This document shows, in pieces, positions 26,294-64,000 of a DNA stretch of 64,000 bases (position 1 is its first letter; every line of letters begins with the position of its first letter). Both the position numbers and the translations under genes were made by a program. Where the stretch lies: positions 214,427-278,426 of the forward strand of contig CAVZLN010000008.1 of the NCBI GenBank assembly GCA_963776245.1, in the 5' to 3' direction. This DNA comes from Candidatus Eiseniibacteriota bacterium. GTDB lineage: Bacteria > Eisenbacteria > RBG-16-71-46. The notes beneath the pieces were generated by a model, which did not search any database, had not been told where the DNA came from, and saw only the letters and a list, made by a program, of their open reading frames with translations.

Positions 26294-27799
26294 CTATCGC
26301 GCGGCGCGACCCCGCGGGGTCTCCTGCGCCAGCCGCAGCCTCAGGTGCCAGAGACGGACGCCGTTCAGCGCGAAGCGCTCAGCGTCCGGGTAGAGTGTAT
26401 CGAATCGGCGCGCGAAGGCGCCGGACGGATCCAGGTCCTCGGTACGGCTCGCCACCACCCACACCCCGCCCGCGCCCTCCATCGCCTCGCCCATCATCCG
26501 GTCGAGGCGCTCCGGGTGCCCGATCAGCCCGAGCCACACGGCGGCCGCCGGGAGCGGACCGCGATAGTAATACGCGAGCGGGTCCTCGGTGTTAATCGAG
26601 ATGATCCGCTCGTCTGCCGAGGCCCGCGCGCGCAGGATCGCGGCCGCGCCCCGGTAGTCCTCCTTGCCGTAGCGCGGATCCCAGTAGTGGTGGACGAGCG
26701 AGAGCGCCCAGAGCGCCGCCACCGCGCCGCCCAGGACCCGCCTCGTCCCCACCCGGGCATCGGCCAGCCCGGCCGCCAGCACCAGCAGGAACGCCGGCAT
26801 CGCCACCATCAGGTAGCGTGGATTGAACACTTTGAAGTTCGATGCCGCCATCCACGACAGCAGGGCCGCTGGCGCCGCCATCCACAGCCACGCATCGAAG
26901 GTCCGGCCGCGTCGCGCCACCGCCCGCAGGCCGAGCAGCCCGAGCGTTCCGAACACCAGCGCCACCACTGCGATGCCGGGCGCGTGGCGCGCGACCGTGG
27001 CCAGACCGGCGTCGGCTCGCAGCTCGCGCAGCGAGGGCCCGAGCGTGTACCCGACCGCGAACGCGTGGAGCGCGAACGGCAGCGCCGCGGCGTGGAAGGT
27101 CGTGGACCCGCGCAGCGCAAGCTCGTCCGGGGCCGGCACCCGCCCCGGGCTCAGCCGCGCCCAGTCCCAGGTGCGCGACAACTGGGGCAGGAACGGCAGG
27201 CCGACGAGCGCGAGCAGCGCGAGCACACCGGCGAGCAGCGCCAGCCGCCGCGCGCGCCCCGCGGCTCCACCCCACCACCACCAGGCGTGCACCGGCACCA
27301 CGAACAGGAAGGTCCAGTTGGAGAGCAGCCCGCCGGCGGCGGCCGCGGCGTAGCCCAGCACGGTGCGGGTCCGCGGGGCCCGGGCGAGCCCGAGCAGCGT
27401 CCCCGCGGACAGCACGGTGCAGAGCGCCAGCAGCGCGTAGTTGCGCGACTCCTGCGAGTACCACACCAGGAACGGGGAGCCTGCGGTCAGCCAGGCCGCC
27501 GGCAGGGCGGTCTCGCGCCCGAGCCAGCGCCCGGCGAGCCACGCCATGGCCGGCACGGTGGCGATGCCGAACAGCGCCGAGGGCAGGCGCATCGCCCACT
27601 CCGAGTCGCCCGCCACGCGGGTCCAGGCATGCACGATCACGCTGAAGAGCGGGCCGTGGAGCTCGTGGACCAGGTCGGCGAAGAGGAACGGACGGCCGAC
27701 GCTGGCGTTCACCCAGGTGAGCACCTCGTCGATCCACAGACTCTGCGAACCGAGGCGGAACAGGCGCAGCGCCGCCGCCACCAGGATGGCGGCAGCCAA
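26294..27799 (-). CDS. GT-C membrane glycosyltransferase, GT39/83 (PMT/ArnT-like) family
   Basis: 501 aa. The N-terminus ALRLFRLGSQSLWIDEVLTWVNAS matches the PMT_2 signature. There are many TM helices and a C-terminal soluble domain. Confidence 0.75.
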   Translation of the reverse strand: MAAAILVAAALRLFRLGSQSLWIDEVLTWVNASVGRPFLFADLVHELHGPLFSVIVHAWTRVAGDSEWAMRLPSALFGIATVPAMAWLAGRWLGRETALPAAWLTAGSPFLVWYSQESRNYALLALCTVLSAGTLLGLARAPRTRTVLGYAAAAAGGLLSNWTFLFVVPVHAWWWWGGAAGRARRLALLAGVLALLALVGLPFLPQLSRTWDWARLSPGRVPAPDELALRGSTTFHAAALPFALHAFAVGYTLGPSLRELRADAGLATVARHAPGIAVVALVFGTLGLLGLRAVARRGRTFDAWLWMAAPAALLSWMAASNFKVFNPRYLMVAMPAFLLVLAAGLADARVGTRRVLGGAVAALWALSLVHHYWDPRYGKEDYRGAAAILRARASADERIISINTEDPLAYYYRGPLPAAAVWLGLIGHPERLDRMMGEAMEGAGGVWVVASRTEDLDPSGAFARRFDTLYPDAERFALNGVRLWHLRLRLAQETPRGRAAR

Positions 27800-28034
27800 C
27801 CAGCGGTGGAAGACCGGATCAGGGGTGGAAGGCAGGGAGGTCGGATGGCGGTCCGGGCGGGCGTCCGATGGGTCTCGCGTCGCGGCTCTCCCGACCGGGC
27901 GGTGTCGGAGTGCCCGATCGCGGCGTCAGGTTGGGTCGCTTCTCGATGCGGCGCGCCCCATGTCGCGACGCGCTCGCCGCTCCTTCGCCGGCACCGCCGG
28001 CGCGGGCCACCGTACCCGGAACTCCCTCCGCCGC

Positions 28035-28982
28035 CTAGTAGGCACCCTCGCGGGAGATCACGGCGGGGATGGTGCGAAGCAGGATCTTGAGGTCCATCGC
28101 GAAGGAGCGGTTCCGGATGTACTCGAGGTCGAGCCGCATCCATTCCTGGAAACCGATGCGGCTGCGTCCGCTGATCTGCCACAGGCAGGTGATGCCGGGG
28201 GCGACATCGAGCCGGTGCATCTGCCACGGCTCGTACTTCGCGACTTCCTCCGGGATCGGAGGACGCGGCCCCACCAGGCTCATCTCGCCCCGCAGCACGT
28301 TGATGAACTGGGGGATCTCGTCGACCGAGGTCCGTCGCAGCAGCCGGCCGATGCGCGTCACGCGCGGGTCCTGGCTGATCTTGAACACCGGGCCATCGCA
28401 CTCGTTGAGGTGGGCGACGCGGTGCCGCATGTGCTCGGCGTCGTTCACCATCGAGCGCAGCTTGAAGAAGATGAACGGTCGTCCGCCGCGCCCGATGCGG
28501 GTCGAGCGGTAGATGACCGGACCGCGCGATTCGAGCTTGATGAGGAGGGCCGCGATCGCGAGCACCGGCAGGGCGAAGCCCAGTGCCACCAGCGCGCCGA
28601 GCAGGTCGAGCGCCCGCTTGCCGCTCCGCAGGTAGAAGCCCTCGGTGCGCGCCGGGGCGCCGGGAAGCAGGTCGAGAGCGGCCGCGGGAGGCCCGGCGAG
28701 CACGAGCGTGGGACGGACGTGGCCGTTGTGATGACCGTTCGTCCCGCCGTTCGCGTGGACGGCACGATGGAGCGCGCCCGCGGCATGGCCGTTGGCGTGT
28801 CCGCGAGCGTCACCGTTCGTGGCGGGCTCGGCCGTGACCGCGGGCGTGGACACCGGGCTGGCAGTCGCGCTGGCGCTCATGTTCTCCACGGAAAGATCGA
28901 GGACCGAATGGTCCCACCCAGCGGTCTGATCGGGACCGCCGGACAATCGCGGACTGGGCTTCGCGAGGATGTCGGGCTCCAT
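28035..28982 (-). CDS. Priming polyprenyl-phosphate sugar-phosphate transferase (bacterial sugar transferase, WbaP/EpsL/PssY-like)
   Basis: C-terminal catalytic domain LLIKLESRGPVIYRSTRIGRGGRPFIFFKLRSMV...GPRPPIPEEVAKYEPWQMHRLDVAPGITCLWQISGRS. The N-terminus has an unusual His/Asn/Gly-rich stretch. Confidence 0.9.
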   Translation of the reverse strand: MEPDILAKPSPRLSGGPDQTAGWDHSVLDLSVENMSASATASPVSTPAVTAEPATNGDARGHANGHAAGALHRAVHANGGTNGHHNGHVRPTLVLAGPPAAALDLLPGAPARTEGFYLRSGKRALDLLGALVALGFALPVLAIAALLIKLESRGPVIYRSTRIGRGGRPFIFFKLRSMVNDAEHMRHRVAHLNECDGPVFKISQDPRVTRIGRLLRRTSVDEIPQFINVLRGEMSLVGPRPPIPEEVAKYEPWQMHRLDVAPGITCLWQISGRSRIGFQEWMRLDLEYIRNRSFAMDLKILLRTIPAVISREGAY

Positions 28983-29455
28983 GACGCCGATCTCTAGTTG
29001 AGTCGCCCGAAAATAATGCCGAAGGGAACGCTTCAGTCCCTTCGGCTCAAAGCTCTCGCTTCATCCGTTCGAACTGGGTCGAGGACTTGTCGAGCACGAG
29101 CGACGGGGGAAACACCAAGATGTCGATCCTCGGATGCTGTTCCCGGCTTGTGGCCGGTCGACCAGCCCACGCTTCCCGCGTGGAACCGGCCTGCTTGGCT
29201 CGTTTGTACGGGTACCCAGTTAGCGAAGTCCCAGAGGCGATCTCCTCCGTTGCCGGCGCGAACTGCTTCTTGCGGCTGCAAAGACATTAGCAAAACCATG
29301 ACAGCCGAATCAAGCACTGGATTCGGCGGTCCCTCCGGCCGAATCCTCCCCCGGGGCGGGGCCCGGCGGGCCGTGCTAGAGTCGGTCCCGGCGGTCTCGG
29401 TCGGCCCCCCCTTCCCCAGTCCAAGTCGCACCCCCCAGACCCGGCAGGAGGTCTC
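28983..29455. promoter_or_regulatory. Long (about 470 bp) divergent intergenic control region between two EPS operons, with two strong hairpins
   Basis: GC content is visibly lower than in the flanks. Hairpin ccgaaggga-N9-tcccttcgg lies at 29025-29051. Hairpin ggattcggc-N10-gccgaatcc lies at 29322-29349. A C-rich tract runs 29400-29440 before the GGAGGT ribosome-binding site and TTG start of the plus operon. Confidence 0.4.
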
Positions 29456-30223
29456 TTGAGCAGCCTCTGGCTCGCCCTTCCCGCGTACAACGAGGAGAAG
29501 TCCCTTCCCGCGCTGCTCGAGCGCTGCGTCCCGGTGGCCAAGGCGCTGGAGGCCAGCGGCCTGCGGCTTTCGGTCATCGTGGTCGACGACGGCAGCAAGG
29601 ACGGGACGATCGCCGCGGCCAGGGCCTTCGAGGGTCGGCTCGCGATCGAGGTCGTCCCGCATGTCGTGAATCAGGGCCTCGGGGCCGCGCTGCGCACCTG
29701 CCTGAGATCCGCCCTGGAGCGGGCCGGGGACGGCGATGCCATCGCCACCATGGACGCCGACAACACCCACGATCCCGCGCTGCTGGTGGAGATGCACCGC
29801 AGGCTGCTCGGGGCTCCGGCCGATCTCGTCATCGCCTCCCGGTACACCCCGGGCGGGGACGAGGTCGGGCTCACCCCGCTCCGCAAGGTGCTTTCGCGCG
29901 GCGCGTCGTTCCTGCTCACCCTGGTGGCGCCGGTGCACGGCGCGCGCGACTACACCTGCGGCTTCCGGCTCTACCGCGAGTCGCTGCTGCGCAGCGCGGC
30001 GCGGGCGTGGGGCGAGCGGCTGGTCGAGGAGGCCGGGTTCACCTGCATGGCCGAGGTCCTGCTCAAGCTCGGTCGCGGCGGGGCCCGTGTGACCGAGGCG
30101 CCGCTGGTGCTCCGCTACGATCTCAAGGAGGGCGCCAGCAAGATGAAGATCATGCGCACCATCACCCGGTATTTCGCCCTGGCGTGGCGCATCCGCAGCG
30201 GACCGCTGCCCCGCCTCGCGTGA
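29456..30223 (+). CDS. GT2 polyprenyl-phosphate glycosyltransferase (DPM1/GtrB-like)
   Basis: TTG start after a GGAGGT ribosome-binding site. Translation LALPAYNEEKSLPALLERC...VIVVDDGSKDGT...ATMDADNTHDP matches DPM1-like enzymes. The protein is soluble, with no TM tail. Confidence 0.8.
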   Translation: MSSLWLALPAYNEEKSLPALLERCVPVAKALEASGLRLSVIVVDDGSKDGTIAAARAFEGRLAIEVVPHVVNQGLGAALRTCLRSALERAGDGDAIATMDADNTHDPALLVEMHRRLLGAPADLVIASRYTPGGDEVGLTPLRKVLSRGASFLLTLVAPVHGARDYTCGFRLYRESLLRSAARAWGERLVEEAGFTCMAEVLLKLGRGGARVTEAPLVLRYDLKEGASKMKIMRTITRYFALAWRIRSGPLPRLA

Positions 30224-30405: not shown

Positions 30406-31080
30406 ATGCACCGAGACCTGAAGCTGAGCGTCGTCATCCCCTGCTACAACGAGGAGGAGGGAGTCCGCCTCGTCATCGACCGGACTCCGAAGATCGTCGA
30501 CGAGATCGTGGTGGTGGACAACAACTGCACCGACCGCACCGCGGAGGTCGCGCGTGCGCTCGGCGCCGTGGTGGTGGCGGAGAAGACCCCCGGCTACGGC
30601 GCGGCCTACAAGCGTGGGCTGAATGCCGCCACCGGCGACATCATCATCACGTTCGACGGCGATGGCACCTACCCGCCCGAGGACATCCCACGCCTGGTGG
30701 ATGAACTGGTGGACAGGAACTGGGACTTCCTCTCGGCGTCGCGCTTCCCGCTGGTGGATCCGAAGGCCATGCCGTTCACGAACCGGCTCGGCAACTGGGT
30801 GCTCACGATCGCCGCCGCGGTGCTGTTCTTCAAGCCCATCCGCGACAGCCAGTCGGGGATGTGGGTGTTCAAGCGCGCCATGCTCGGCCGCCTGAAGCTG
30901 ACGTCCGACGGGATGGCGTTCAGCGAGGAGATCAAGCTCGAAGCCCTGATGCGCGGCCTGCGATTCGGGGAAGGGCACATCCCCTACGGGGCCCGCGTCG
31001 GTGAGGTGAAGCTCGAGAAGTGGAAGGACGGCTGGGAGAATCTCGCGTTCCTCGTCCGCAAGCGTTTCGGAGCGGTATGA
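30406..31080 (+). CDS. GT2 polyprenyl-phosphate glycosyltransferase (DPM1-like)
   Basis: Translation LSVVIPCYNEEEGVRLVIDRT...VVVDNNCTDRTAEVA...ITFDGDGTYPPEDIPRLV. Length is 224 aa. Confidence 0.8.
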   Translation: MHRDLKLSVVIPCYNEEEGVRLVIDRTPKIVDEIVVVDNNCTDRTAEVARALGAVVVAEKTPGYGAAYKRGLNAATGDIIITFDGDGTYPPEDIPRLVDELVDRNWDFLSASRFPLVDPKAMPFTNRLGNWVLTIAAAVLFFKPIRDSQSGMWVFKRAMLGRLKLTSDGMAFSEEIKLEALMRGLRFGEGHIPYGARVGEVKLEKWKDGWENLAFLVRKRFGAV

Positions 31081-32516
31081 GCCGGATGGAGCGCCGCGCG
31101 GACTCGGTGGCCCGCGAGCCTCGCGACATCCTCCCCGTCGTGCTGGGCGTGCTGGTGGTGCTGGCCGCGGGCCTGATGGCCGGGCTCCAGTACGCCGCCC
31201 CGGACAAACGCGTGATCGCCGTGATCGCTGCGATGCTGATGTTCGGCATCGCGTGGCGGATCGACATGACGTCGGGCATCGGGCTGCTGGTGTTCGCGCT
31301 CCCCTTCCCCCGCGGCACGGTGTTCGGCAACACCAACTTCGCCCTCATCCTGCTCCTGCTCGTCATCTGGCTGCTGCGCACCTCCCAGCGCCAGAGCCCC
31401 GCGCTGCGCCGAACCCCGATCGACGCGCCCCTCGGCGCGTTCGTGATCGTCTGGATCGTGTCCTTCTACAACATCCAGCGCCCCGAGATCCTGAAGCCGG
31501 CGCTCCTGAACACCCAGTTGCTGGTCGCCTGCATCCTGATGTTCTACCTGATCGTGAGCAACGTGCGGACCGAGCGCGACCTCCAGCGGCTGCACGCCTT
31601 CCAGCTCGTGTCGCTCACGGCCGTGGCGCTGGTCGGGGTCTACGAGCTCACCACGCCCGGCGCCTCGCTCTTCCCGGGCTGGATCTACTTCCCGGGCGCT
31701 TCGAGCGCGGAGATGGGCCTCCACAACTTCCGCATCGGCGGCCCGTTCTTCGACTACGAACTGTTCGGGGAGTACGCCGCCGTCAACCTGCCGCTGGCGG
31801 TGTTCGCGTTCACGCGCGCGCGCAGCATGCTGCTGCGCGTGGCGACCGGCGGTGTGGCCCTGCTCACCATCTTCATCCTGTTCGCCACGGTGACCCGCGG
31901 GGCCATGATGGCGCTGGGCGCTGGCGTCCTCTATCTCACCTGGATCGTGCGCCGGCGTCTCCGCGTGGTGCCGTTCACGATCGTCCTCGCCGCCCTCGTG
32001 GTGGGCTTCCTCGCCATGGACTTCTTCGTCGCGAACTACACCCGCTCGGGCTCCATGCTGGAGCGGCTGGTCGGCACCGAGTTCAAGGGCCTCGTGCCGG
32101 AAAGCCGCGAGCGGGCGTGGCGGGACGGCTGGGACCGCTTCCTGCTCCATCCCATCCTCGGGCATGGCCCGTTCTACGCCGGGCAGATCGGGACGCGCAC
32201 CTATTTCTGGCCGCACAGCGGCTACCTGCTGATCGCCAACCTGGTGGGCTCGGTGGGACTCGGGTTCTTCCTCTGGCTGCTGTTCCGGCTGTGGCAGTGC
32301 ACGCGGCCGTCCGTGGACACCCTCGATGATCCGTCCTATGCGCGCTCCTACCTGGTGATCGCGCACACCCAGCTCATCATCTTCATGGCGGACCAGATCA
32401 AGATCGAGTTCCTGAGGAATCCCAGCTATCAGTTCCAGGTGTGGATGTACTTCGCGATCTGGGTGTCGGCGTATTTCGTGGCGCGCTCGCTCCCCGCATC
32501 GCCGAGCGGCCGGTGA
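31077..32516 (+). CDS. O-antigen ligase/polymerase family membrane protein (Wzy-like)
   Basis: The ATG overlaps the upstream stop (ATGA at 31077-31080). There are about 10 TM helices and a central loop with ATVTRGAMMALGAGVLYL typical of the O-antigen ligase (Wzy_C) family. Confidence 0.7.
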   Translation: MSRMERRADSVAREPRDILPVVLGVLVVLAAGLMAGLQYAAPDKRVIAVIAAMLMFGIAWRIDMTSGIGLLVFALPFPRGTVFGNTNFALILLLLVIWLLRTSQRQSPALRRTPIDAPLGAFVIVWIVSFYNIQRPEILKPALLNTQLLVACILMFYLIVSNVRTERDLQRLHAFQLVSLTAVALVGVYELTTPGASLFPGWIYFPGASSAEMGLHNFRIGGPFFDYELFGEYAAVNLPLAVFAFTRARSMLLRVATGGVALLTIFILFATVTRGAMMALGAGVLYLTWIVRRRLRVVPFTIVLAALVVGFLAMDFFVANYTRSGSMLERLVGTEFKGLVPESRERAWRDGWDRFLLHPILGHGPFYAGQIGTRTYFWPHSGYLLIANLVGSVGLGFFLWLLFRLWQCTRPSVDTLDDPSYARSYLVIAHTQLIIFMADQIKIEFLRNPSYQFQVWMYFAIWVSAYFVARSLPASPSGR

Positions 32517-33871
32517 GCGCGCGCGCGGCGCTCCAGCGCCTCGCCATCCCGCTCAAGCGCAGCGCGCTCGGCGAGGATCTGGTGCGGCGGAACCCGCTCT
32601 GGTACCCGGCCGCGGCGCGGCACTTCACGCGGCTGCTCGCCGCGCCGCTCGAGCAGCGGCGCGTCTGGGACGCGCGCGCCCTGCAGCGCGCGCTGGCACG
32701 CGCCGCGCGCACGCCGTACGGCCGGCGCGTCGGCGGCGGGGCGGACCTCGCGTCGTGGCCGCTGCTCGCGCCCGCCACGGTGCGGGATGCGCCCGGCGAG
32801 GTGATGCATCCCGGTCCGCTCTCGCTCCCCGCGGCGACGGGAGGCACGACCGGCGTGCCGCTGCCCCTGGTCCGCTCGCCCCGCTCCGTCGCGGTGGAGC
32901 AGGCGGCCATCGACCACCTGCTGCGCGCGCACGGCGTGGACCCGCGACGCGCGCGCGTCTGCGTGCTGCGCGGGGACGACGTAAAGGACCCGGCCGACCG
33001 CACGGCGCCGTTCTGGGTGGATGCCTCCGACGGCCGGCGCCGCATCTTCTCGTCCAACCACCTCGCGGCCGACACCGTGACGGCCTACGTCGAATCGCTG
33101 GTCGCCTTCCGCGCCGACTACTGGTGGGTGTACCCGAGCGCGCTCGAGTCGCTGCTGCGACGGATGACCGCGGCCGGTCTCCGGGCGACCGTGCCCTTGT
33201 TGCTGGCGTCCTCCGAACGACTGTCGCCGGCGGTGAACCGCCAGGCGCGCGCCGCCCTCGGCTGCGCCGTGATCGACTACTACGGCCAGGCCGAGCGCGT
33301 GGCGTTCGCGTGGTGCGAGGACCCGGGGACGTGGCGGTTCCTGCCCGGGTACGCCCACGTCGAACTGGTGCCGCATCCGGATTCGGGCGACGGCCTCCGC
33401 TACGAGATCGTGGGCACGCCGTTCTGGAACGCGAGCATGCCGCTGGTGCGATATCGCACCGGTGACCTGGTGCGGTTCGACACCGCGCCCGATGCCGCGG
33501 CGCTGGAGGAGATCGCCCTCGGGGTCCGGGCGTTCCCGGGCGTGCTCGGTCGCGACGGCGACATCCTGGTGGCCCCGGACGGCACCCATCTCACCGGCAT
33601 CGACCACTTCCACCGCGGCGTGGACCGCGTGATGCGGATCCAGGTGGTCCACGAGCGCCCCGACCTCGTCCTCGTCCGGGTCCTGCCCGCCGCCGGCTTC
33701 GGAGCGCCGGAGCGCGCCGCGATCCTCGCCAACGCCCGCCGGAAGCTCCCCCCTTCGATGCGGGTCGAGGTGGAGCTGGCCGACGTCCTGGAGCGCACCG
33801 CGCTCGGCAAGACGCCCTTCGTGCTGCGCCGGCCCGGGGTCCCGGGGCCGTCGCACGGCGTCGCGCGATGA
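32513..33871 (+). CDS. Adenylate-forming CapK/F390-synthetase-like (phenylacetate-CoA ligase family) protein
   Basis: GTG start overlaps the Wzy stop (GTGA). The AMP-binding-like core [17 protein letters not shown] and [10 protein letters not shown] are present. This family is common in capsule/EPS loci. Confidence 0.75.
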
Positions 33872-34890
33872 CCTCGGTGCGGGGGTTCGCGCCCGCGGAT
33901 CGCGGACGCTGGGACGCCTATGTGGCCGGCGCCCCGGGCGCCCACTTCGCCCAGCGCGCAGCGTGGAAGGACGTGACCGAGCGCGGCTACGGCGCGCGCG
34001 CACGCTGGTGGCTGGCCGAGCGCGAGGGACGGGTGACGGGCGTGCTGCCGTTGTTCGAGGCGCGCGGGCTCACCGGCGAGCGGCGGCTGTTCTCGGCGCC
34101 CGGGGGGCTGCTCGCGGACGACGCGTCCACCGCGGCGGGCCTGCTCGAGCCGGCACGCGAGGCCGTCGCCCGCGAGGGCCACGCCCTGCTGGAACTGCGC
34201 GACCAGCGCCATCGTTGGCCCGGGCTCGTCACCGTCGAGGAGCACGTGACCATGGAGCTCGCGCTCCCGCCCGACCCCGCGATGTTGTGGAAGGCGTTCG
34301 ACGCCAAGCTGCGCAATCAGATCCGCAAGGGCGAGAAGTCGGGCCTCACAGCGCGTTGGGGCCGCGATGGCGCCGCGTTCCACCGCGTGCTGCTCGAGAA
34401 CATGCGCGACCTCGGCACCCCGATCCTGGGGCCGGAGTACTTCCGCGGCGTGCTGGACGCGTACGGCGAGGACGCGGGCGTGCTGGTGGTCGAGGCCGGG
34501 GGCGAGCCGGCCGGCACCATGTTCGTGATCGAGCATGCCGGCGTGGCGGCCGACCCATGGGCGTCGTCGCTGCGCCGCTTCTTCGCGCTCTGCCCCAATC
34601 AGGTGGTCTACTGGGAGGCGCTCCGGCGCGCCATCGCGCGGGGGATGACCCGCTTCGACTTCGGCCGCAGCCAGCCGGGGTCGGGCACGTTCCGATTCAA
34701 GGAACAGTGGCTCGCGCGGCCGGTCCCGCTGTACTACCAGTACGTGCTGGGCTCCGCGGCGCGGCCCCCCACGCTGGAGGACCAGAAGCATGCGTTCGCG
34801 CTCGCGGTGCGGCTCTGGCAGCACCTGCCCGTGCCGGTCGCGGGGACGCTGGGGCGGCAGGTGAAGCGCCTGTTCCCCGAGGCGCTGTGA
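33868..34890 (+). CDS. FemAB-like (GNAT-fold, Acetyltransf_6) protein of the PEP-CTERM/EPS-locus-associated type
   Basis: 340 aa. The [41 protein letters not shown] and [19 protein letters not shown] pattern is typical of FemAB-family EPS proteins. ATGA overlap with the upstream gene. Confidence 0.65.
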
Positions 34891-34925
34891 CGGCGCGCCA
34901 CGGCGCGCCGGGGAAGGTGGACGAT

Positions 34926-35426
34926 ATGAGGATCACGGGCCGGACCGACCGCCGGGAATACGAGCGTCGCATCGCGCCCCGCAGCCTGCTGCGCGTGTTC
35001 TGGCAGAAGCAGCTCCACATGATCGCGCGCTTCTGCATCCCCGGCGAGCCGCGCGTGGCGCTCTACCGCGCGATGGGCATGGAGATCGGCCGTCACGTCT
35101 ACATCGGGATGGACAGCTGGCTCGACGACCAGTTCCCCGAGCTCATCCGCATCGAGGACGACGTCGTGATCTCGTTCCGCGTCACGGTCGTCGTGCACGA
35201 CGACGCGCGGCGCATGGACCGCATCGAGCCCGGCCAGCTCGAGGGCACGGTGGCGCCGGTGGTGCTGAAGCGCGGCTGCTACCTGGGGGCGGGCGCGCTG
35301 GTGCTGCCCGGCATCACGGTGGGCGAGCGCGCGGTGGTGGCGGCGGGCGCGGTGGTGACCCGCGACGTGCCACCGGGGACGGTGGTGGCGGGAGTGCCCG
35401 CCCGCGTCATCCGGGAACTCGCGTGA
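34926..35426 (+). CDS. Hexapeptide-repeat (LbH) O-acetyltransferase, WbbJ/LacA-like
   Basis: GGAAGGTGG ribosome-binding site at 34912-34920, then ATG at 34926. The hexapeptide region is [15 protein letters not shown]...[36 protein letters not shown]. Confidence 0.8.
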
Positions 35427-37453: not shown

Positions 37454-37469
37454 CCGGAGAACCAGGACC

Positions 37470-39079: not shown

Positions 39080-39080
39080 T

Positions 39081-39470: not shown

Positions 39471-39490
39471 AGCGCTCCGGACGGCAGCGC

Positions 39491-42389: not shown

Positions 42390-42398
42390 CGCCCGCGC

Positions 42399-43577: not shown

Positions 43578-43578
43578 G

Positions 43579-49130: not shown

Positions 49131-49143
49131 GTGGGTCGCTCCT

Positions 49144-50139: not shown

Positions 50140-50200
50140 GCGTCCTCCCATCACGGCGATCCATTTCCGGCGCGCGAGTATAGCATCCGCGCGTCGGCGT

Positions 50201-54370: not shown

Positions 54371-54381
54371 TGGCCGCGCTC

Positions 54382-56934: not shown

Positions 56935-57911
56935 CGAGCCGCCTCGGGGTCGGCGGCCAGTCGCCGGGTCAGCAGCCGCGTCACGTGGCCGATCAGCCCG
57001 GCGACATGCGCCGCGCGGCGCCGGCGCCGCGGCGCGAACGGGGCGAGCGCCGCGTTCTTCAGGAGCGTCAGCGCCAGGCTCAGGATGAGGCTCAGCTTGA
57101 ACAGGAACGCGAGAGGAGGCGTGAAGGAGAGGTCCCAGAAGTAACAGGCCGACTCGAGGTTCGCGGCGGGCATGGACTCGCCCTCGAAGATGCGGCTCTG
57201 CCCGCCGAGATGCGTGACCTGGGCTCGCGGCTCGTACGCGAGGCGCAGGCCGGCCCGGCGGGCGCGCAGGCTCCACTCCACGTCGTCGTAATTGAGCACC
57301 AGCCGCCGATCGAGCAGACCCACGCGCTCGAGCGCTTGGCGACGGAACAGCACGCATGCCCCCGACAGCACCTCGGTCTCGTGCGGTCCCCCATACCACG
57401 CGCGGGGGTGGGCGCCGCTCACCCACCCGAGCAGCGCCGGGATGCGCGCCGGGATCGGGGTGTGGCCCAGCAACGTGGGCAGCACGCCGGGCGCCCGGCG
57501 CGCGCACACGAACTGGGTGGTCCCGTCGGCGTTGAGCAGCCGCGGGCCCGCCGCCGCGAGCCCCGGATCCCCCTCGAGCCGCCGCGCCAGTTCGCCGAGC
57601 GCGTCCCCGATCAGGAACGCGTCGGAGTTGAGCGCCAGGACGTGGCGGCCGCGCGCCGCGCGCAGCCCCTGGTTGCAGGCGGGAGCGTAGCCCCGGTTCT
57701 CCGGATTGCGGACCAGTGTCACCGCGGGCCAGCGCTCCGCGACCCACTCGGCCGAGCCGTCGGACGACGCGTTGTCGATGACCAGCACCTCGCGCGACAA
57801 CTCCGGGCTGCTGGCGAACGCGGCCTCCAGACAGCGGTCGAGCATCCGGCGCGTGTTCCAGCTCACGATCACGATGGAGACGTACGGTGCGGCGGCCGGG
57901 AGGTCAGACAT
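56931..57911 (-). CDS. Glycosyltransferase family 2 (rhamnosyltransferase-like)
   Basis: Translation VSIVIVSWNTRRMLDRCLEA...VIDNASSDGS...LNSDAFL shows GT2 motifs. Confidence 0.8.
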   Translation of the reverse strand: MSDLPAAAPYVSIVIVSWNTRRMLDRCLEAAFASSPELSREVLVIDNASSDGSAEWVAERWPAVTLVRNPENRGYAPACNQGLRAARGRHVLALNSDAFLIGDALGELARRLEGDPGLAAAGPRLLNADGTTQFVCARRAPGVLPTLLGHTPIPARIPALLGWVSGAHPRAWYGGPHETEVLSGACVLFRRQALERVGLLDRRLVLNYDDVEWSLRARRAGLRLAYEPRAQVTHLGGQSRIFEGESMPAANLESACYFWDLSFTPPLAFLFKLSLILSLALTLLKNAALAPFAPRRRRRAAHVAGLIGHVTRLLTRRLAADPEAAR

Positions 57912-59388
57912 CCTGGCCCTCCTGCCCCGGCACGCTCGCGGTGCGCAGGCGCGCGCGCACCGCCGCCTTGATCTGCGCGATCTCCAGCGGGGTGATCGAG
58001 GTGGCCGCCCACAGCAGCGCGATGCCCGCGCCGACCAGGCGCCAGCGCCAGTCCGGGAAGGGCAGCGCGGCCACCGCGATCACGGCGGCGAACGAGGTGG
58101 CCAGCAGGCGCAGGTTGTCGCGCGTGAAGCGGAATCCGTTCACGCGGCGCAGGTAGATCACGTGCATGCCCAGGTGCACGCTCCACGACACGGTGTGGCC
58201 CCACACCGCGCCCCACAGGCGCTGCTCGGCGGGCACGCCGAAGAAGATGGCGGCGAAGGTGCCGTAGTGGATCAGCGACATGATGTTGCGGGCCCGGTGA
58301 CGCTCCTGGGGCAGCAGCGGCAGCTGGATGGCGAAGGAGACCGCCTTGACGAGATCGCCCACCAGTTGGACCGGGAACAGCGGCAGGGCGTCCAGGAACC
58401 GGCTCGAGAACAGCAGGTGGATGACCACGTCGCGGGACAGCAGGATGGCCAGGATGCCCGCCGCCGAGAACAGCACGGCGACGCGCGTGGCGTTATTGAC
58501 CTCCTGATTGATGGCCGCGACCTCGCGCAACTGGCTGATGCGGGGGAAGGAGTACGCGGTCATCGCATTGAGCGGGATGGCGAGGTACTGCATGGAGATC
58601 GCGAACAGCGCCTGGAAGATGCCATTGCGGGTCAGACCGCAGTCGTGGACGATCTGCGCCCGCAGGACGAACGGGAAGGCCATCGTGAGGACGAACGGGA
58701 CGAAGTTGGCCGCGCCGAATCGCCACAGGCTGGTGACGACCGTGCGGTCGAAGGGCGCCCGCGCGATCGCCTGCCGCATCTCGCGGTCCATCGTCCGATC
58801 GGCCGTCCAGCGCGCCACGGCCCAGCCGAGCACGGCGAACACCAGCAGGTGGATCGAGGCGCCCTTGAGCCTCCAGATCAGCACCAGCGGCGCCAGCACC
58901 GCGAGTCCGCCGATCGAGGTGATCATGATGGCGCGCGAGTAGGAGCGGATCTCGAGTCCGGCCTGCACGAACATGAGCCAGGTCTGCGACTGCACCAGGA
59001 ACGGGATGCCGAGGACCGGCGCCACCAGCATCACCATGTAGATCGGATCGCCCGTCGCCCACACCGTCAGCGGCTTGAGCCAGACCAGGCACAGCGCGGT
59101 GGCGATCAGCGAGAGCCAGAGGAAGAGCCGCGCCGCGGTCGCGACGAACGAGACCAGCCGCTCGCGGTCCTCCTTGCGGTAGAGCGCGACGTAACGAAGC
59201 GCCCCGGTCTGCAGTCCCAGAGGCACCACTCCGGCAGCGAGGCTCTGCAGCCCGAAGAGCTGGGCGAACAGCCCGATCCCGGTGGGACCGAGCACCTCCG
59301 CGAGGAGCTTGTTGCGCAGCACGGCGACGGCGGTGTTGGCGATGGTCGAGGTGCCGATCAGGAACACCGAACGGAGCAGGGCTCTCAT
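57904..59388 (-). CDS. wzx: Wzx/MOP-superfamily oligosaccharide flippase
   Basis: ATG at 59386-59388 overlaps the upstream stop (ATGA). 494 aa with about 12-14 TM helices. The N-terminus LLRSVFLIGTSTIANTAVAVLRNKLLAEVLGPTGIGLFAQ is typical of polysaccharide biosynthesis (PST) flippases. Confidence 0.8.
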   Translation of the reverse strand: MRALLRSVFLIGTSTIANTAVAVLRNKLLAEVLGPTGIGLFAQLFGLQSLAAGVVPLGLQTGALRYVALYRKEDRERLVSFVATAARLFLWLSLIATALCLVWLKPLTVWATGDPIYMVMLVAPVLGIPFLVQSQTWLMFVQAGLEIRSYSRAIMITSIGGLAVLAPLVLIWRLKGASIHLLVFAVLGWAVARWTADRTMDREMRQAIARAPFDRTVVTSLWRFGAANFVPFVLTMAFPFVLRAQIVHDCGLTRNGIFQALFAISMQYLAIPLNAMTAYSFPRISQLREVAAINQEVNNATRVAVLFSAAGILAILLSRDVVIHLLFSSRFLDALPLFPVQLVGDLVKAVSFAIQLPLLPQERHRARNIMSLIHYGTFAAIFFGVPAEQRLWGAVWGHTVSWSVHLGMHVIYLRRVNGFRFTRDNLRLLATSFAAVIAVAALPFPDWRWRLVGAGIALLWAATSITPLEIAQIKAAVRARLRTASVPGQEGQDV

Positions 59389-60861
59389 GCGCGCGCCCCT
59401 CCGGCCGCCCACGCGCGCGCCAGCGCGCCGATGCCGAGCCCGCGCGCGAACCACCACAGGACCGGCGCGTACACCAGCGCCACGGCGGCGGTGCGCAGCC
59501 ACGCGGCGCCCGCGGATGACGGCGGACCGACCGCGCACACCGCGAATGCCGCCGCCCCCGCCCACGCCGCGGGCAGGAAGCTCGCGATCGCGAACGTCAG
59601 ACGCTCGACCGGCCCGCTCCGCAGGTCGCGCGCCGCGAGCGCCACCAGCGTGATCGCGAACGCCGCCGTAGCCGAGGCACGCCGCCCCCGCCACCGCGGC
59701 CGGGACGCGGAGCGCGCGCGGCGACACCGAACACCATCATCGCGGTGAGCGCGGCGCACGCCGCCGAGGCGCGCGAACAGGGTCCACGTGCGGCCGCTGC
59801 CGAGCAGCCAGTAGCCCGGCAGGGTGGCGGCCGACAGCAGGAGCGCGCCGAACGCGAGCAGGCGCAGGGCGTCGATGCCTCCGCCGTAGCGCGGCAGCCA
59901 CCACAGCACCGCGCGGCCCCGCCCACACCATGCCGATGCGCGACCGCGAGCGGGAGCAGCAGCGTGAGGACGCGCTGCGTGCGGGTCACTTCGTCGCGGG
60001 TGCGCTCGAGGTCGCGCGCGCCGCCGGCCGCCGCCGCGATGCGCGGGTAGAGCACCGCGGCGACGGACTCGGGCGGGTAGAGCACCAGGCCCGCGGCGGT
60101 GAGCCCGAGACTGTAGAGGCCGAGGGACTCGGGGTGGCCGGCGTGGACGAGCGCGATCCGGTCCACCGATCGCAGCGCCAGCGAGGCGAGGAAGGTGCCG
60201 AACACCGGCAGTCCGGCCCACGCCAGCGCGAGCCCGTCGCGCGCGTCGCCGAACGCGAGCGGCACGTCGCGTGCGACGAGACGCAGCGCGCGAGCGCCAC
60301 CAGCGTGCCGACGCAGCCATCCGCCGGCCAGCGCCCACAGACCGAAGCGCGCCACCAGCGCCAGCCCCAGGCCACCACCGAGCAGCGCCTGCAGCGCGGT
60401 GGCCTCGCTCACCGGCGGAACACGCCGCGCGCCCGGAGCGCGGTGGCGTGCAGCTGGAACGCGAGCTGGGCCGCGGCCGCGGCGAGCAGGAGCATCGCGG
60501 GACCCGGCCCGGCGACCGCGGTGAGCAGCGGCGTGCCCGCCACCAGCGCGGCGCCGACGGCGAGCGCGAACAGCGCGAACGCCGCCGCGATCACGGACCA
60601 CGCGCCGCCGAGCAGGCGCCGCGCCGCGGCGCGGTCGCCCTGGCCCTCGGCCACCGGCAGGCGCAGCTCGAGGCCCTGCAGCGCGCCGGCCGAGGCGTAG
60701 CCGCCGTAGTCGAGCACCAGGCTGAGCGCGTTCCACGCCCCGAAGCCGGCGGGCCCGAGCACCACCGCCGCCACCAGCCCGCGCGCCAGCATCACCGCTC
60801 GCGCCACGTAGGTGGCGAGGGCGAGGCCGACCGAGTCGCGGATCAGGGTGCGGGGGGACAC
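59385..60861 (-). pseudogene. Second MOP/PST-family flippase, split over 3 frames (2 frameshifts)
   Basis: The N-terminus MSPRTLIRDSVGLALATYVARAVMLARGLVAAVVLGPAGFGAWNALSLVLDYGGYA reads in frame 1 (60409-60861). The middle reads in frame 2 (ALQALLGGGLGLALV...LYSLGLTAAGLVLYP...). The C-terminal TM region reads in frame 3 (ALRLLAFGALLLSAATLPGYWLLGS...). The shifts lie near 60410 and 59860-59930. Confidence 0.55.
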
Positions 60862-60924
60862 GGGTGCGCGCCTCTCCTACGCCGGGGCTTGGAGCGGGAC
60901 GGGCCGCTCCTCTAGAATGAGCGG

Positions 60925-62170
60925 ATGCACGCGCCCCCGCCCCCACCCCGCGATCTCGCCACCCCGCCCGTGCATCCCGAGCGGCTCGCCTCGCTGGGCG
61001 GCCGCCCGGTGCGCGACACGTTCCTGCCGCTGGCGATGCCGTGGATCGGCGAGCGCGAGAAGGCGCTCGTGCTCGAGACGCTCGAATCCGGCTGGATCAC
61101 CACCGGCCCGAAGGCGCAGGCCCTCGGCGAGCGCATCGCGGCGCTCGCGGGCGCGAAGCACGGGCTGGCGGTGAACTCCGCCACCGGCGCGCTCCATCTC
61201 GCGCTCGCCGCACTCGGCGTGGGCCGGGGCGACGAGGTCATCACGTCGGCCTACACCTTCGCCGCCTGCGTCAACGTCATCGAGCATGTCGGCGCCACGC
61301 CGGTGCTGGTGGACGTCGAGCCCGACACGCTGTGCCTCGACCCGCGCGCCGTCGAGCGCGCGCTCACCCCGCGCACGCGGGCCGTCATGCCGGTGGACTA
61401 CGCCGGGCACCCGTGCGATTACGGGGCGCTCCTGCCGCTGTGCCGCGCCCACGGCGTGCACGTGGTCGAGGACGCCGCTCACGCCCTCGGCGCCGCGTGG
61501 CGCGGGCGCGCCGGTCGGCTCGTTCGCCGACGTCACCGCGTTCTCGTTCTACGCGACCAAGAACCTCACCACCGGCGAGGGGGGCGCCGCGGTCACCGCG
61601 GACGACGCCCTCGCCGAGCGCATGGCGCTGCTCTCGCTGCACGGCATGAGCCGGGACGCCTGGAAGCGCTACGGCGACACCGGGTCGTGGTACTACGAGG
61701 TGACCGCGCCGGGATTCAAGTACAACTTCAGCGACGTGCTCGCGGCGCTGGGGCTCGGCCAGCTCGAGCGCTTCGAAGGGTTCCAGCGCCGCCGCGCGGA
61801 GATCGTGGCGCGCTACGACGCCGGGCTCGCCGGGGTGGCCGGGGTCCGCACCATGCGGGCCCGCCCGGACGTCACGCACGCCCGCCATCTCTATCCGATC
61901 GCGCTCGAGCTCGAACGGCTCACCCTCGATCGCGCGGCATTCATCCGCGAACTGCGGGCCGAGAACATCGGCACCTCGGTGCACTTCATCCCCATCCACT
62001 TCCACCCGCACTTCGCCCGCACGCTCGGCCGCCGCGAAGGGGATTTCCCGGTCGCCGAGGACGCCTACCGCCGGGCCGTGACGCTGCCGCTGTTCCCGCG
62101 CATGAGCGACCGCGACGCCGACGACGTCGTCGCGGCCGTGATCAAGGTCGCCGCGCACTTCGCCCGCTGA
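60925..62170 (+). pseudogene. DegT/DnrJ/EryC1/StrS-family PLP-dependent sugar aminotransferase; one frameshift near 61500
   Basis: The N-terminal half (MPWIGEREKALVLETLESGWITTGPKAQALGERIAALAGAKHGLAVNSATGALHLAL) is in one frame. The C-terminal half (FSFYATKNLTTGEGGAAVT...LSLHGMSRD...) is in the +1 frame and ends at 62170. Confidence 0.75.
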
Positions 62171-62199
62171 CGCGGCGGGCGCGAGCGGTCCGCCTGGAT

Positions 62200-63205
62200 T
62201 CACGTCGCGTCCTCGGTGGCCTGACCCAGCGACGCCAGCGACAGCCCCTCGCGATTCAGGTAGACCAGGCCCACGACGGTGATCGGCAGCCACTGGCTCG
62301 CGAGGTAGAACCACGAGAACGCCGCCGCCGGGCCCGGGGACACCTTGAACAGCGCGAGCCCCGCCACGCACGCCGCATTGAGCGGGCCGACGTAGCCGGG
62401 CGCCGACGGCACCATGATGCCGATGGCTGTGACCACCAGCATGAGCAGCGCGACGTCCCAGCCCGAGCAGGATGTCGAGCGACCACAGGCTCAGCCAGAT
62501 GGCGAACGCGTACACCAGGAACATGCCGAACGAGAGCGACAGCACCACCGCCAGCCGCCGGACGTCGCGGAACAGCCCGAGTCCCTCGATGAACTGGTCC
62601 AGCAGGTGCTGCACCTTGGCGCGCGGGCGGGCGGGCAATGGACGGGTGATCAGCCCGACGAAGCCATGCGCCAGCCGCGGACTGCGCTCGAGCAGGACGA
62701 TGAACACCGTGAGCGTGGCGCTCAGGATGACCAGCAGCAGCGCGCCCTTCTGCAGCAGCTGCGCGGCGGCGGTCTCGGTCGAGATCGGGTGCACGAACAG
62801 CGCGACGCCGAGCAGGGCCAGCAGCGTGAGCATGTCGATGGCCCGCTCCACCACGATGGTGGCGAGCAGCATCGTCTTCGACAGCCCCTCGCGCCGCGCC
62901 AGCGCCCATGGCCGCACGAACTCCCCGAGCCGCAGCGGCAGCACCATGTTCGCCATGAATCCGATCATGGTGGAGCTGAACAGACTGTCGCCGGAGATGC
63001 GCCGCGGCGCGGCGATCAGCAGTCGCCAGCGCATCGCCCTCACCCAGAAGCCGAAGATGGTGAGCGCCATGGTGCCCACGAATCCGAGGTAGTTGGCCTC
63101 GCGCAGGACGTGCATCATCTCGGACAGCGAGACGTGGCGCATGGCCAGCCAGACGCACACGACCGAGACCACCAGCGCGATCAGGATGTTGAGCCATCGC
63201 TTCAC
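62200..63205 (-). CDS. Flippase-like / lysyl-phosphatidylglycerol-synthase-TM-region (UPF0104) family membrane protein; one frameshift near 62450
   Basis: GTG start overlaps the DUF2304 stop (GTGA at 63202-63205). The N-terminus WLNILIALVVSVVCVWLAMRHVSLSEMMHVL is followed by about 8 TM helices. The last roughly 80 aa (IGIMVPSAPGYVGPLNAACVAGLALF...) are in a second frame. Confidence 0.5.
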
Positions 63206-63579
63206 TGGGTCCCCCTGTCCGTGGACGCCGCCCGCAGTTCCTCGAGCTCGCGCCGCACCAGCGCCAATTCGCGGATGGTCTCCGCATGGTCGCGCCCGAT
63301 CCGCGTCAGGCGCACCGAGAGATACAGCAGCATCGTGGTGCCGAAGGCCAGCCCGACCAGGAACACCATGCTGCTCTCGTAGAGGATCCCGAGGGCGTGG
63401 GTCAGGCCGCGCAGGGCGGGGGTCCAGAATCCGAGCACCGCCGCGACGGCGCTCGAGACCATCCACAGGAACGAGTACTCCTCGGCCAGCCGGCGACGTC
63501 GTACCAGCTCGAGCACGACGAGCGCGAGCGCCATCGCGCCGACCGCCGTGATGACCTGGGTCCTCGACAGGAAGTCCAT
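63202..63579 (-). CDS. DUF2304-family small membrane protein (second copy)
   Basis: GGAGGAGGGG ribosome-binding site, then ATG at 63577-63579. Translation MDFLSRTQVITAVGAMALALVVLELVRRRRLAEEYSFLWMVSSAVAAVLGF matches the 39081-39470 protein in architecture and motif (RRKRL/RRRRL...EEYS/EQYSLLW). Confidence 0.6.
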   Translation of the reverse strand: MDFLSRTQVITAVGAMALALVVLELVRRRRLAEEYSFLWMVSSAVAAVLGFWTPALRGLTHALGILYESSMVFLVGLAFGTTMLLYLSVRLTRIGRDHAETIRELALVRRELEELRAASTDRGTQ

Positions 63580-63596
63580 CGGCCCCTCCTCCGCGG

Positions 63597-64000
63597 TCAG
63601 TCGCGCCGCGTCAACAGCGCCATCAGCGATGCGAGCAGGTTCTTGTACGGGTAGTAGAGCTGCTTCCCCAGCGTGTAGAACGATCGTCCGGCGGTCCGCT
63701 CGCGCATCTCCACCGGGACCTCGCACAATCGGAATCCCCGGCGGGCGAGCGCGATCAGCAGCGGCGCGTCCGGGAAGTCCGCCGGGAAGTCGTACTGGCA
63801 GACCTCCATGACCGCGCGCCCGTACGCTCGGAAGCCCGACGTCGTGTCGGCGATCCGGCCGCCCGCCGCGAGACGTACCACCCATGCGAACAGCACCATC
63901 CCCGCGCGGCGCAGCGGCGGCGCATGGTACGCGGTGTGGGCCACGTAGCGCGAGCCGATGCACACGTCGGCCCGGCCGGCGAGCACCGGTTCCGCCACCG
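63597..64000 (-). CDS. GT2 polyprenyl-phosphate glycosyltransferase (DPM1-like), C-terminal part only (gene continues beyond window end)
   Basis: Translation ...CIGSRY...ADTTSGFRAYGRAVME...FPDAPLLIALARRGFRLCEVPVEM matches the conserved DPM1/GtrB C-terminal half. It lies immediately upstream of a DUF2304 gene, the classic pairing. Confidence 0.7.
   Translation of the reverse strand, partial: VAEPVLAGRADVCIGSRYVAHTAYHAPPLRRAGMVLFAWVVRLAAGGRIADTTSGFRAYGRAVMEVCQYDFPADFPDAPLLIALARRGFRLCEVPVEMRERTAGRSFYTLGKQLYYPYKNLLASLMALLTRRD

Follow-up and report, generated by a model that had tools for sequence, protein, structure and literature searches.

The window analyzed here is a 64,000-nt stretch of contig CAVZLN010000008.1 (73% G+C) from a Candidatus Eisenbacteria bacterium. 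The region from 19.3 to 64 kb is best explained as a conserved envelope-glycan supercluster, in which at least three extracytoplasmic glycosylation modules of the three-component type are probably layered on a Wzx/Wzy exopolysaccharide (EPS) pathway. A sequence-only reading of the same DNA had pointed to an unusual concentration of polyprenyl-phosphate-sugar machinery. This concentration is real, and all of the parts listed there were found by Pfam, NCBIfam, and PDB searches and by structural modeling. The periplasmic glycosylation on a Wzx/Wzy pathway that it proposed fits the protein families, the folds of the membrane-bound glycosyltransferases (GT-C fold), and the strongly conserved gene order. 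Its view that the combination was not a described system did not hold, because a synthase of glycosyltransferase family 2 (GT2), a DUF2304 activator, a flippase, and a GT-C enzyme constitute a published three-component system, as in GacI/GacJ/GacL and PpgS/Rv3632 (10.1101/180810; PMC8035078; PMC11127046).

Genes were called with a codon log-odds model because plain lists of open reading frames (ORFs) are full of spurious frames at this G+C content. Sequence families were assigned by Pfam and NCBIfam scans, and solved relatives were sought by a PDB sequence search. The window was compared with 47 related genome loci (L numbers below) and named homologues, nearly all of which belong to metagenome-assembled genomes (MAGs) of Candidatus Eisenbacteria. 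The gene order of the cluster recurs in dozens of independent Eisenbacteria contigs; therefore, the arrangement is not due to chance. Start/stop overlaps of 4 nt link most of the genes from 30406 to 42389, and also those from 59412 to 51343.

The best supported of the three modules (module 2) lies at the end of the window. Its genes run on the minus strand in the order GT2d, DUF2304b, UPF0104, DegT (opposite strand), Wzx2, Wzx1, GT2e, GT-C850, AsnB, and two GT4 genes (glycosyltransferase family 4). The genes of this block other than Wzx1, AsnB, and the GT4s are as follows.

63597-63998, minus strand: GT2d, C-terminal 133 residues of a PpgS/GacI-like GT2 with its N-terminus outside the window (NCBIfam DPhHxTase 2e-11)
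63202-63579, minus strand: DUF2304b (Pfam DUF2304 4e-17)
62203-63205, minus strand: UPF0104/LPG_synthase_TM (PplT) flippase-like protein with a frameshift near 62466 (Pfam 4e-36 and 5e-5 in two frames; tblastn)
60976-62167, plus strand: DegT-type sugar aminotransferase with one frameshift (Pfam DegT_DnrJ_EryC1 in two frames; tblastn to the L004 orthologue)
59430-60861, minus strand: Wzx2, a second MOP/Wzx-like gene with two frameshifts (tblastn, three frames, against 489-residue orthologues in L004 and L005)
56931-57911, minus strand: GT2e, an ordinary GT2 that is not DPM1-like, 326 residues (NCBIfam MftF, PgaC, and rhamnosyltransferase types)
54382-56934, minus strand: GT-C850, a GT-C protein paralogous to GT-C676 (below), whose periplasmic domain is AglB-like and whose C-terminal part is a beta-sandwich, 850 residues

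For the conservation counts, 24 independent loci were used, each of which extends 5.5 kb or more upstream of a GT-C850 homologue. GT2d and DegT are present there in 22 loci each, and DUF2304, UPF0104, and Wzx2 in 23 each. The neighborhood comparison that the sequence-only reading had suggested as a check thus gave a GT2-DUF2304-UPF0104-Wzx2 string in 22 to 23 of the 24 loci. The block behaves as a unit: synthase, flippase candidates, and GT-C are encoded together and conserved. DUF2304b begins 18 nt past the end of GT2d. The two DUF2304 proteins of the window, which had also been named in the sequence-only reading, both have three hydrophobic segments and score well above the PF10066 cutoff of 25.5 bits (87.1 bits for DUF2304a in module 1 and 62.9 bits for DUF2304b). 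The UPF0104 gene named beside them is likewise present as LPG_synthase_TM, split by its frameshift. GacJ forms a complex with GacI and boosts its GlcNAc-P-undecaprenol synthase activity, and Rv3632 boosts PpgS (10.1101/180810). Proteins of the UPF0104 family are predicted to flip lipid-linked sugars and are found next to, or fused with, glycosyltransferases (PMC12713373; 10.1101/2022.03.11.483950). UPF0104 and the MOP/Wzx-like Wzx2 are the predicted flippase candidates for polyprenyl-phosphate (polyprenyl-P) sugars in the window.

In the proposed mechanism, GT2d and the GacJ-type DUF2304b would form a polyprenyl-P (amino)sugar at the cytoplasmic face, with the adjacent DegT aminotransferase helping to supply the sugar nucleotide. 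The lipid-linked sugar would be flipped, presumably outward, by UPF0104 and/or Wzx2, and GT-C850 would then move the sugar onto the exported polymer. The C-terminal beta-sandwich of the GT-C850 model resembles the carbohydrate-binding module (CBM) of Wzt, and it leans toward a glycan as the acceptor. Between protein O-mannosylation and glycan decoration, which the sequence-only reading had offered as alternatives, this domain points to the glycan side but does not make the choice.

The partial GT2d is one of four short GT2s in the window, of which the other three are listed here.

29456-30223, plus strand: GT2a, DPM1-like GT2 and candidate polyprenyl-P-sugar synthase, 255 residues (PF00535 2e-22)
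30406-31080, plus strand: GT2b, DPM1/AglJ-like GT2, 224 residues (NCBIfam DPhHxTase_Halo 9e-37, AglJ 1e-34)
37470-38204, plus strand: GT2c, PpgS/GacI-like GT2, 244 residues (NCBIfam PpgS 1e-25)

The Glycos_transf_2 profile (PF00535) matched all three at E values of about 1e-22, and a GT-A type GT2 domain is present. The closest characterized relatives of the four short GT2s are all polyprenyl-P sugar synthases, namely PpgS, the Haloferax dolichyl-P-hexose transferase, AglJ, and ArnC, together with Pyrococcus DPMS and GtrB. For GT2a, the best NCBIfam match is PpgS (5e-16) and the best PDB match is DPMS (5mlz, 1e-15, residues 6-246), followed by ArnC and GtrB. The PDB matches of GT2b are DPMS (3e-16), ArnC, and GtrB, and those of GT2c are DPMS (3e-14) and ArnC. 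The PDB sequence search with the partial GT2d gave no match; the fragment aligns with GT2c along its whole length, and it shares 72% identity with residues 104-230 of a 236-residue PF00535 GT2 that occupies the corresponding position in L004. The D-x-D site of GT2a, GT2b, and GT2c lies inside a DAD/DGD-x-x-H/Y-x-P motif (MDADNTHDP, the variant FDGDGTYPP, and MDADGQHDP, respectively). We take DAD-x-x-H-x-P to be the defining motif of the polyprenyl-P sugar synthase family. GT2c also has a C-terminal hydrophobic helix (residues 219-237). As controls, the two ordinary GT2s of the window (at 56931 and 21629) gave either chondroitin synthase and generic GT2s or no match, with no synthase signal; for GT2e at 56931, neither DPMS nor ArnC was among the PDB matches. 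From these relationships, we infer that the four short GT2s act as polyprenyl-P sugar synthases, as the sequence-only reading had proposed.

GT2b opens the operon of module 1, which runs on the plus strand from 30406 to 42389 in the order GT2b, Wzy, ligase, FemAB-like protein, hexapeptide transferase, GT-C676, GT2c, deacetylase of carbohydrate esterase family 4 (CE4), DUF2304a, a 140-residue protein, a GMC oxidoreductase, and a short-chain dehydrogenase/reductase (SDR). The genes other than GT2b and GT2c are as follows.

31077-32516, plus strand: Wzy_C polymerase/ligase-type membrane protein (Pfam Wzy_C 5e-14; at least nine hydrophobic segments)
32513-33871, plus strand: AMP-binding/CapK-like ligase (Pfam AMP-binding 1.5e-7; orthologues in relatives with CapK_C)
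33868-34890, plus strand: FemAB-like acyl/aminoacyl transferase (TIGR03019 pepcterm_femAB 263.7 bits, cutoff 260.35; Pfam Acetyltransf_6)
34887-35426, plus strand: hexapeptide-repeat acyltransferase (Pfam Hexapep)
35423-37453, plus strand: GT-C676, GT-C-fold transferase of an unannotated Eisenbacteria-restricted family, 676 residues
38201-39079, plus strand: cytoplasmic CE4 deacetylase with Polysacc_deac_1 and DUF3473 domains (Pfam; TIGR03006 221 bits, cutoff of 276 not reached)
39082-39471, plus strand: DUF2304a, GacJ/Rv3632-type small membrane protein (Pfam DUF2304 1e-24)
39491-42389, plus strand: conserved trio of the 140-residue protein, a GMC-type FAD oxidoreductase, and an SDR "epimerase" (Pfam GMC_oxred_C, Epimerase)

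The CE4 deacetylase is the constant neighbor of GT-C676. The sequence-only reading had missed it, as it had missed Wzx2 and the numerous frameshifts. The deacetylase lies 3' of GT-C676, directly or after GT2c, in 29 of the 34 loci that are informative downstream of this gene. These loci fall into two main types. Eleven of them have the order of the window, with GT2c between the GT-C and the deacetylase (type A); in 18, the deacetylase directly follows GT-C676 and GT2c and DUF2304 are absent (type B); five belong to neither type. These counts indicate that the genes that constantly accompany GT-C676 are those of the deacetylase and of the FemAB-like and hexapeptide proteins (the hexapeptide acyltransferase adjoins GT-C676 in 18 of 37 loci) and that GT2c-DUF2304 is an optional insert. 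GT2b is the most conserved gene of the operon, with orthologues that are 64-92% identical, and in 8 of 11 loci the next gene downstream of it is Wzy. GT2b may be the constant synthase of the operon.

In module 1, GT2c with DUF2304a, which is one gene away from it with the deacetylase between, or else the constant GT2b, would form a polyprenyl-P-linked N-acetylhexosamine (HexNAc). The cytoplasmic CE4 enzyme would de-N-acetylate this lipid in the manner of the Arn, Lgm, and Flm pathways, and the presumed amino sugar would be transferred by GT-C676 in the periplasm. No signal peptide is present in the deacetylase, and its metal-binding motifs FDVEDW and HGMTH are retained, which would fit an enzyme that de-N-acetylates a lipid-linked HexNAc at the cytoplasmic side of the membrane. 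ArnD has this de-N-acetylating role in the Arn pathway.

The trio downstream of DUF2304 is also found in L001-L003, L011, L016, and L038, and the 140-residue protein belongs to no family. We considered a periplasmic location for the GMC oxidoreductase and the 140-residue protein and rejected it, since neither has a Tat or signal motif and both are thus cytoplasmic. By analogy with DprE1/DprE2, the GMC/SDR pair could act as an oxidase and a reductase that epimerize a lipid-linked or nucleotide sugar.

The deacetylase also admits another explanation, in which GT2, deacetylase, and UPF0104 make an amino-glycolipid as an end product for membrane charge remodeling rather than a donor for a GT-C. 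Operons of a synthase, a deacetylase, and UPF0104 are known (GpgSDF/HexSDF), their products being GlcN-phosphatidylglycerol (PMC12713373) and an aminohexosyl glycolipid (PMC10128005), and all three kinds of genes occur in the window. However, the published synthases are GT-B enzymes (GT4, MGDG-synthase-like), whereas those here are DPMS/PpgS-like GT2s with GacJ-type DUF2304 proteins. Moreover, the deacetylase and UPF0104 belong to different modules and operons 23 kb apart, and both modules are tightly linked to GT-C genes. We regard the amino-glycolipid explanation as quite improbable and retain the donor role for both modules.

The two large membrane proteins of these modules, GT-C676 and GT-C850, had no Pfam or NCBIfam match, and the PDB sequence search found nothing for GT-C676 and only one chance-level match for GT-C850 (E 1.4). 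AlphaFold2 models built from homologue alignments (pLDDT 89 for GT-C676 and 93 for GT-C850) contain a multi-helix membrane domain with the GT-C fold and match GT-C enzymes. The sequence-only reading had allowed that the large membrane proteins might be transporters or have another role; the models instead place them among the GT-C enzymes. The two families are homologous (hhalign 98%, E 5e-14) and hence paralogues. Invariant acidic residues occur in an amphipathic helix-loop segment of each protein (D144 and D164 in GT-C676; D153, D156, and D186 in GT-C850). The families comprise about 76 and more than 190 clusters, which are hypothetical proteins in public records. The DUF6541 profile (cutoff 29 bits) matches relatives of GT-C850 marginally, at 24-29 bits.

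Some observations on this lineage stand by themselves. L005 carries two further GT-C676-family paralogues (1899-4010 and 13826-15904; 703 and 692 residues) with no Pfam match, and L030 has another near 10107, so that the lineage is expanded inside single loci. Six loci (L014, L016, L020, L021, L041, and L047) of this otherwise Eisenbacteria-only family are labeled Udaeobacter, Saccharimonadaceae, Verrucomicrobiia, Terriglobales, Limnocylindria, or Methylomirabilota; they all come from one MAG series (SMAG), and mis-binning seems more likely than lateral transfer. A 924-residue protein (P0002) in L001 (10001-12775; same contig as L007) had the appearance of a GT-C676-GT2c fusion, but it was rejected as a frameshift artefact because the GT-C at the L001 junction stops at its own stop codon in another frame; the long ORF arises from a frameshift and continues across high-GC sequence that happens to be open. 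False fusion proteins can thus result from gene calling in these assemblies. A search for an additional GT-C at 59400-61000 by tblastn with the GT-C proteins of the window found none, and the region is the frameshifted Wzx-like gene.

Several observations weigh against the layered-module reading. None of the Pfam scans gave a match to a GtrA-family or SMR flippase. The charges on the loops of the AlphaFold2 helices are too sparse to establish the sidedness of the invariant Asp and His residues. GT2c-DUF2304 is absent beside GT-C676 in the 18 type B loci; therefore, the pairing of GT2c with GT-C676 is not obligatory. The P0002 fusion, which had seemed to link these two proteins, drops out as evidence because it is an artefact. 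None of the short GT2s reaches an NCBIfam equivalog cutoff (best scores of 59-126 bits against 370-529), so that they are relatives rather than orthologues or equivalogs and their lipid acceptor is inferred. For GT2a and GT2b, no membrane segment is predicted, and neither is paired with a DUF2304 protein.

The type B loci, in which no GT2 lies directly beside GT-C676, would suit a different role for the large GT-C proteins. GT-C676 and GT-C850 might be similar to an oligosaccharyltransferase (OST) or a ligase and move a whole repeat unit or polymer linked to undecaprenyl pyrophosphate (Und-PP) en bloc onto protein or lipid, with the DPM1-like GT2s serving other steps. The models are similar to STT3/AglB, the C-terminal periplasmic domains of both proteins are AglB-like, that is, they have the OST C-terminal fold, and the backbone pathway resembles XrtA/PEP-CTERM EPS loci (below). 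On the other hand, ArnT, AftA, ALG12, and PMTs, which use monophosphate donors, score level with STT3/AglB, and neither family consensus contains the WWD of the WWDYG-type motif of STT3/AglB/PglB. GT-C850 is tied to GT2d-DUF2304-UPF0104 in 22 to 23 of 24 loci, the separate Wzy_C protein could be the ligase or polymerase, and no exosortase gene was found in the window. En bloc transfer therefore appears rather unlikely.

The low equivalog scores and the lack of membrane segments in GT2a and GT2b bear on a second possibility, namely, that the short GT2s are ordinary cytoplasmic enzymes that extend an Und-PP repeat unit and that their clustering with GT-C genes is a by-product of a very large glycan locus. 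Only the generic PF00535 profile is matched above its curated cutoff. However, the top solved and curated relatives are specifically polyprenyl-P synthases, unlike those of the control GT2s, two of the short GT2s adjoin DUF2304 in nearly all loci, and the size of 224-255 residues fits the single-domain DPM1/PpgS type. This possibility, which the sequence-only reading had also considered, is very doubtful, and we keep the layered modules as the preferred reading.

A more far-reaching proposal concerns the GT-C lineage itself. GT-C676, GT-C850, and their paralogues might form a new Eisenbacteria-restricted GT-C family that deserves its own CAZy family, with an OST-like periplasmic domain and with a cytoplasmic CE4 deacetylase and a FemAB-like protein as constant partners. 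The family could mark a pathway not described before, with de-N-acetylation of a lipid-linked HexNAc, perhaps its re-acylation by an amino acid, and then its transfer outside the membrane, or it could be a new class of bacterial OST or ligase that attaches an XrtA-type polysaccharide en bloc to protein or lipid. We consider this proposal unlikely as it stands.

Module 3 is centered on a GT-C of the PMT type. Three proteins of this type occur in the window.

26294-27799, minus strand: PMT_2-type GT-C, 501 residues (Pfam PMT_2 7e-11, above cutoff)
676-2880, minus strand: GT-C734, PMT-related and outside the polysaccharide cluster, 734 residues (no direct Pfam match)
13260-14480, minus strand: PMT_2 GT-C beside glycogen and sugar-nucleotide genes (Pfam PMT_2 7e-10)

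The GT-C at 26294 has weak NCBIfam matches to Agl23 and a mannosyltransferase. Its orthologue adjoins the priming transferase and GT2a/GT2b in L001, L003, and L038, and it sits between GT2a and GT2b in L002. GT2a and/or GT2b would feed this enzyme in module 3. The other two proteins are of the GT-C type, as the sequence-only reading had stated, but they lie outside the cluster, among unrelated neighbors (acetate kinase at 676; glycogen and sugar-nucleotide genes at 13260). GT-C734 was assigned through its homologues: PMT_2 was found in 9 and PMT in 7 of 40, and its profile matches yeast Pmt1 (8e-4). Its invariant D167 lies in the motif PPxDxDSLxYHLP in an amphipathic helix-loop segment.

The backbone pathway includes the Wzy_C protein of module 1 and the following genes.

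28035-28982, minus strand: priming polyprenyl-phosphate hexose-1-phosphate transferase (PGT), with an uncertain start codon at 28889 or 28982 (Bac_transf 2e-64; EPS_sugtrans 287 bits, cutoff 295.6)
42399-43577, minus strand: GT4 (Pfam)
43579-45768, minus strand: fusion of alcohol dehydrogenase (ADH) and GFO/IDH domains (Pfam)
45984-47462, plus strand: DUF362 protein, 492 residues (Pfam)
47494-50154, minus strand: epimerase, NTP-transferase, and dehydratase (Pfam)
50201-52455, minus strand: two GT4s (Pfam)
52452-54371, minus strand: AsnB-like amidotransferase (best NCBIfam match XrtA/PEP-CTERM amidotransferase, 570 bits, cutoff 817)
57904-59412, minus strand: Wzx1, MOP-family flippase (NCBIfam WzxE 3e-26; weak Pfam Polysacc_synt)

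The sequence-only reading had described the polyprenyl-phosphate-sugar machinery as replacing the usual priming enzyme and cytoplasmic transferases. It is actually present in addition to the PGT, GT4s, an ordinary GT2, Wzy, and Wzx. Three GT4s and the ordinary GT2 lie between 26294 and 64000, and three more GT4s and a GT2 lie just upstream. UDP-glucose dehydrogenase, nucleotidyltransferases, dehydratases, epimerases, DegT, and the AsnB-like protein are present as well. From these families, the PGT, GT4s, Wzy, Wzx, AsnB-like and FemAB-like proteins, acyltransferases, and sugar-nucleotide enzymes would assemble a Wzx/Wzy heteropolysaccharide with an XrtA/PEP-CTERM-EPS flavor. XrtA-system families are the best matches, all below cutoff, for the deacetylase, the amidotransferase, the PGT, and several GT4s (TIGR03006, TIGR03108, TIGR03025); only the FemAB-like protein passes an XrtA marker cutoff (TIGR03019), and no exosortase gene was found in the window. 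The cluster thus resembles an XrtA/PEP-CTERM EPS locus but is not assigned to this type. The 729-residue fusion at 43579-45768, a zinc alcohol dehydrogenase joined to a GFO/IDH/MocA domain beside a GT4, is conserved (L002, 16203-18064).

Frameshifts occur in UDP-glucose dehydrogenase (24961-26285, two), Wzx2 (two), DegT (one), and UPF0104 (one), and GlgA (14477-16009) is split into Glyco_transf_5 and Glycos_transf_1 ORFs. The sites are short G/C runs and not long homopolymers, and relatives carry many frameshifts as well. Indel errors are likely because the related contigs bear names in the style of long-read assemblers (contig_13502, isolate MFD05942.bin.1.32). This suggests sequencing errors, with pseudogenes as the alternative. 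Further irregular regions lie upstream. The minus-strand ORF at 10428-11564 matches positions 61-148 of the GTP cyclohydrolase I profile followed by a GT2 domain, and it is either a frameshift or assembly artefact or an odd fusion. The 574-residue ORF at 11876-13600 (plus strand) has an amino-acid kinase domain (PF00696, 7e-48) only at residues 56-283, and its codon-position signal shifts after about 12550; it is probably a frameshift or an over-long ORF. The segment 18515-19290 is rich in G+C at every codon position and gave no clean gene call, and the frame tried holds a stop codon. The upstream housekeeping genes (5172-6434, 8076-9401) include a di-haem cytochrome c peroxidase, which is consistent with the presence of a periplasm, and an NfeD/SPFH pair.

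Three features are new here: the stacking of at least three modules in one locus; a phylum-restricted GT-C lineage that has no Pfam, NCBIfam, or PDB sequence match and whose relatives only graze DUF6541; and the near-constant coupling of this lineage to a cytoplasmic CE4 deacetylase and a FemAB-like gene. They do not overturn current understanding. The analysis assigns a fold, and a role that can be tested, to two large families whose members are listed publicly only as hypothetical proteins, and it places the marginal Pfam family DUF6541 among GT-C enzymes. Earlier work on three-component periplasmic glycosylation dealt mostly with single cassettes of pathogens, whereas here a single EPS locus from an uncultured phylum of soil and sediment stacks it at least three times. 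The "pepcterm_polyde" and "pepcterm_femAB" genes of XrtA-type EPS loci have long lacked an explanation, for which the GT-C-deacetylase-FemAB linkage offers a hypothesis, and the GT2-DUF2304-UPF0104 string is a good site to ask whether UPF0104 (PplT) flips polyprenyl-P sugars.

Among known systems, the modules resemble the side-chain HexNAc/GalN systems GacI/GacJ/GacL (with the flippase GacK) and PpgS (Rv3631)/Rv3632/Rv3779, in which a DPM1-like GT2 lies beside DUF2304 and is accompanied by a GT-C. They differ in their GT-C, whose lineage is unannotated and whose periplasmic domain is AglB-like, and in having UPF0104 and a MOP protein as flippase candidates. In addition, a CE4 deacetylase is in the operon, the host belongs to a Gram-negative-type uncultured phylum, and the equivalog cutoffs are all missed. 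Compared with the Arn pathway (ArnC-ArnD-ArnE/F-ArnT), module 1 has no ArnA/ArnB-type genes, its deacetylase is nearest to the XrtA-system family TIGR03006, and a GT2 is optional beside the GT-C-deacetylase pair. Because the module is embedded in an EPS operon, lipid A is an unlikely acceptor. Lgm of Bordetella and FlmF2/NaxD/FlmK of Francisella are Arn-related amino-sugar pathways. In contrast to GpgSDF/HexSDF, the synthases are GT2 and not GT-B enzymes, and the deacetylase and UPF0104 are not in one operon.

In XrtA/PEP-CTERM EPS loci, relatives of the FemAB-like protein, deacetylase, amidotransferase, PGT, and GT4s are also found, but all except the FemAB-like protein score under cutoff here, and no exosortase gene was seen in the window. 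As in O-antigen glucosylation by GtrA/GtrB/GtrC, a GtrB-like GT2 would feed a periplasmic GT-C that acts on a Wzx/Wzy polymer. However, there is no GtrA-family gene, the GT2s lack the two transmembrane helices of GtrB, and the genes are chromosomal and multi-copy, whereas Gtr is a phage-borne three-gene cassette. In the O-antigen pentofuranose system of Citrobacter youngae (GT136 GT-C, MATE flippase, polyprenyl-P-ribose synthase, and auxiliary epimerase), the synthase is a PRPP-dependent phosphoribosyltransferase, unlike the GT2 here. This system nevertheless provides precedents for a CBM-bearing GT-C, a MOP flippase, and auxiliary epimerases (PMC11127046), which match the Wzt-CBM-like sandwich of GT-C850, Wzx2, and the GMC/SDR pair, respectively. 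As in that system, a GT-C with a C-terminal carbohydrate-binding-like domain is accompanied by a flippase candidate of the MOP superfamily, and the nearby cytoplasmic SDR and oxidoreductase could modify the lipid-linked sugar.

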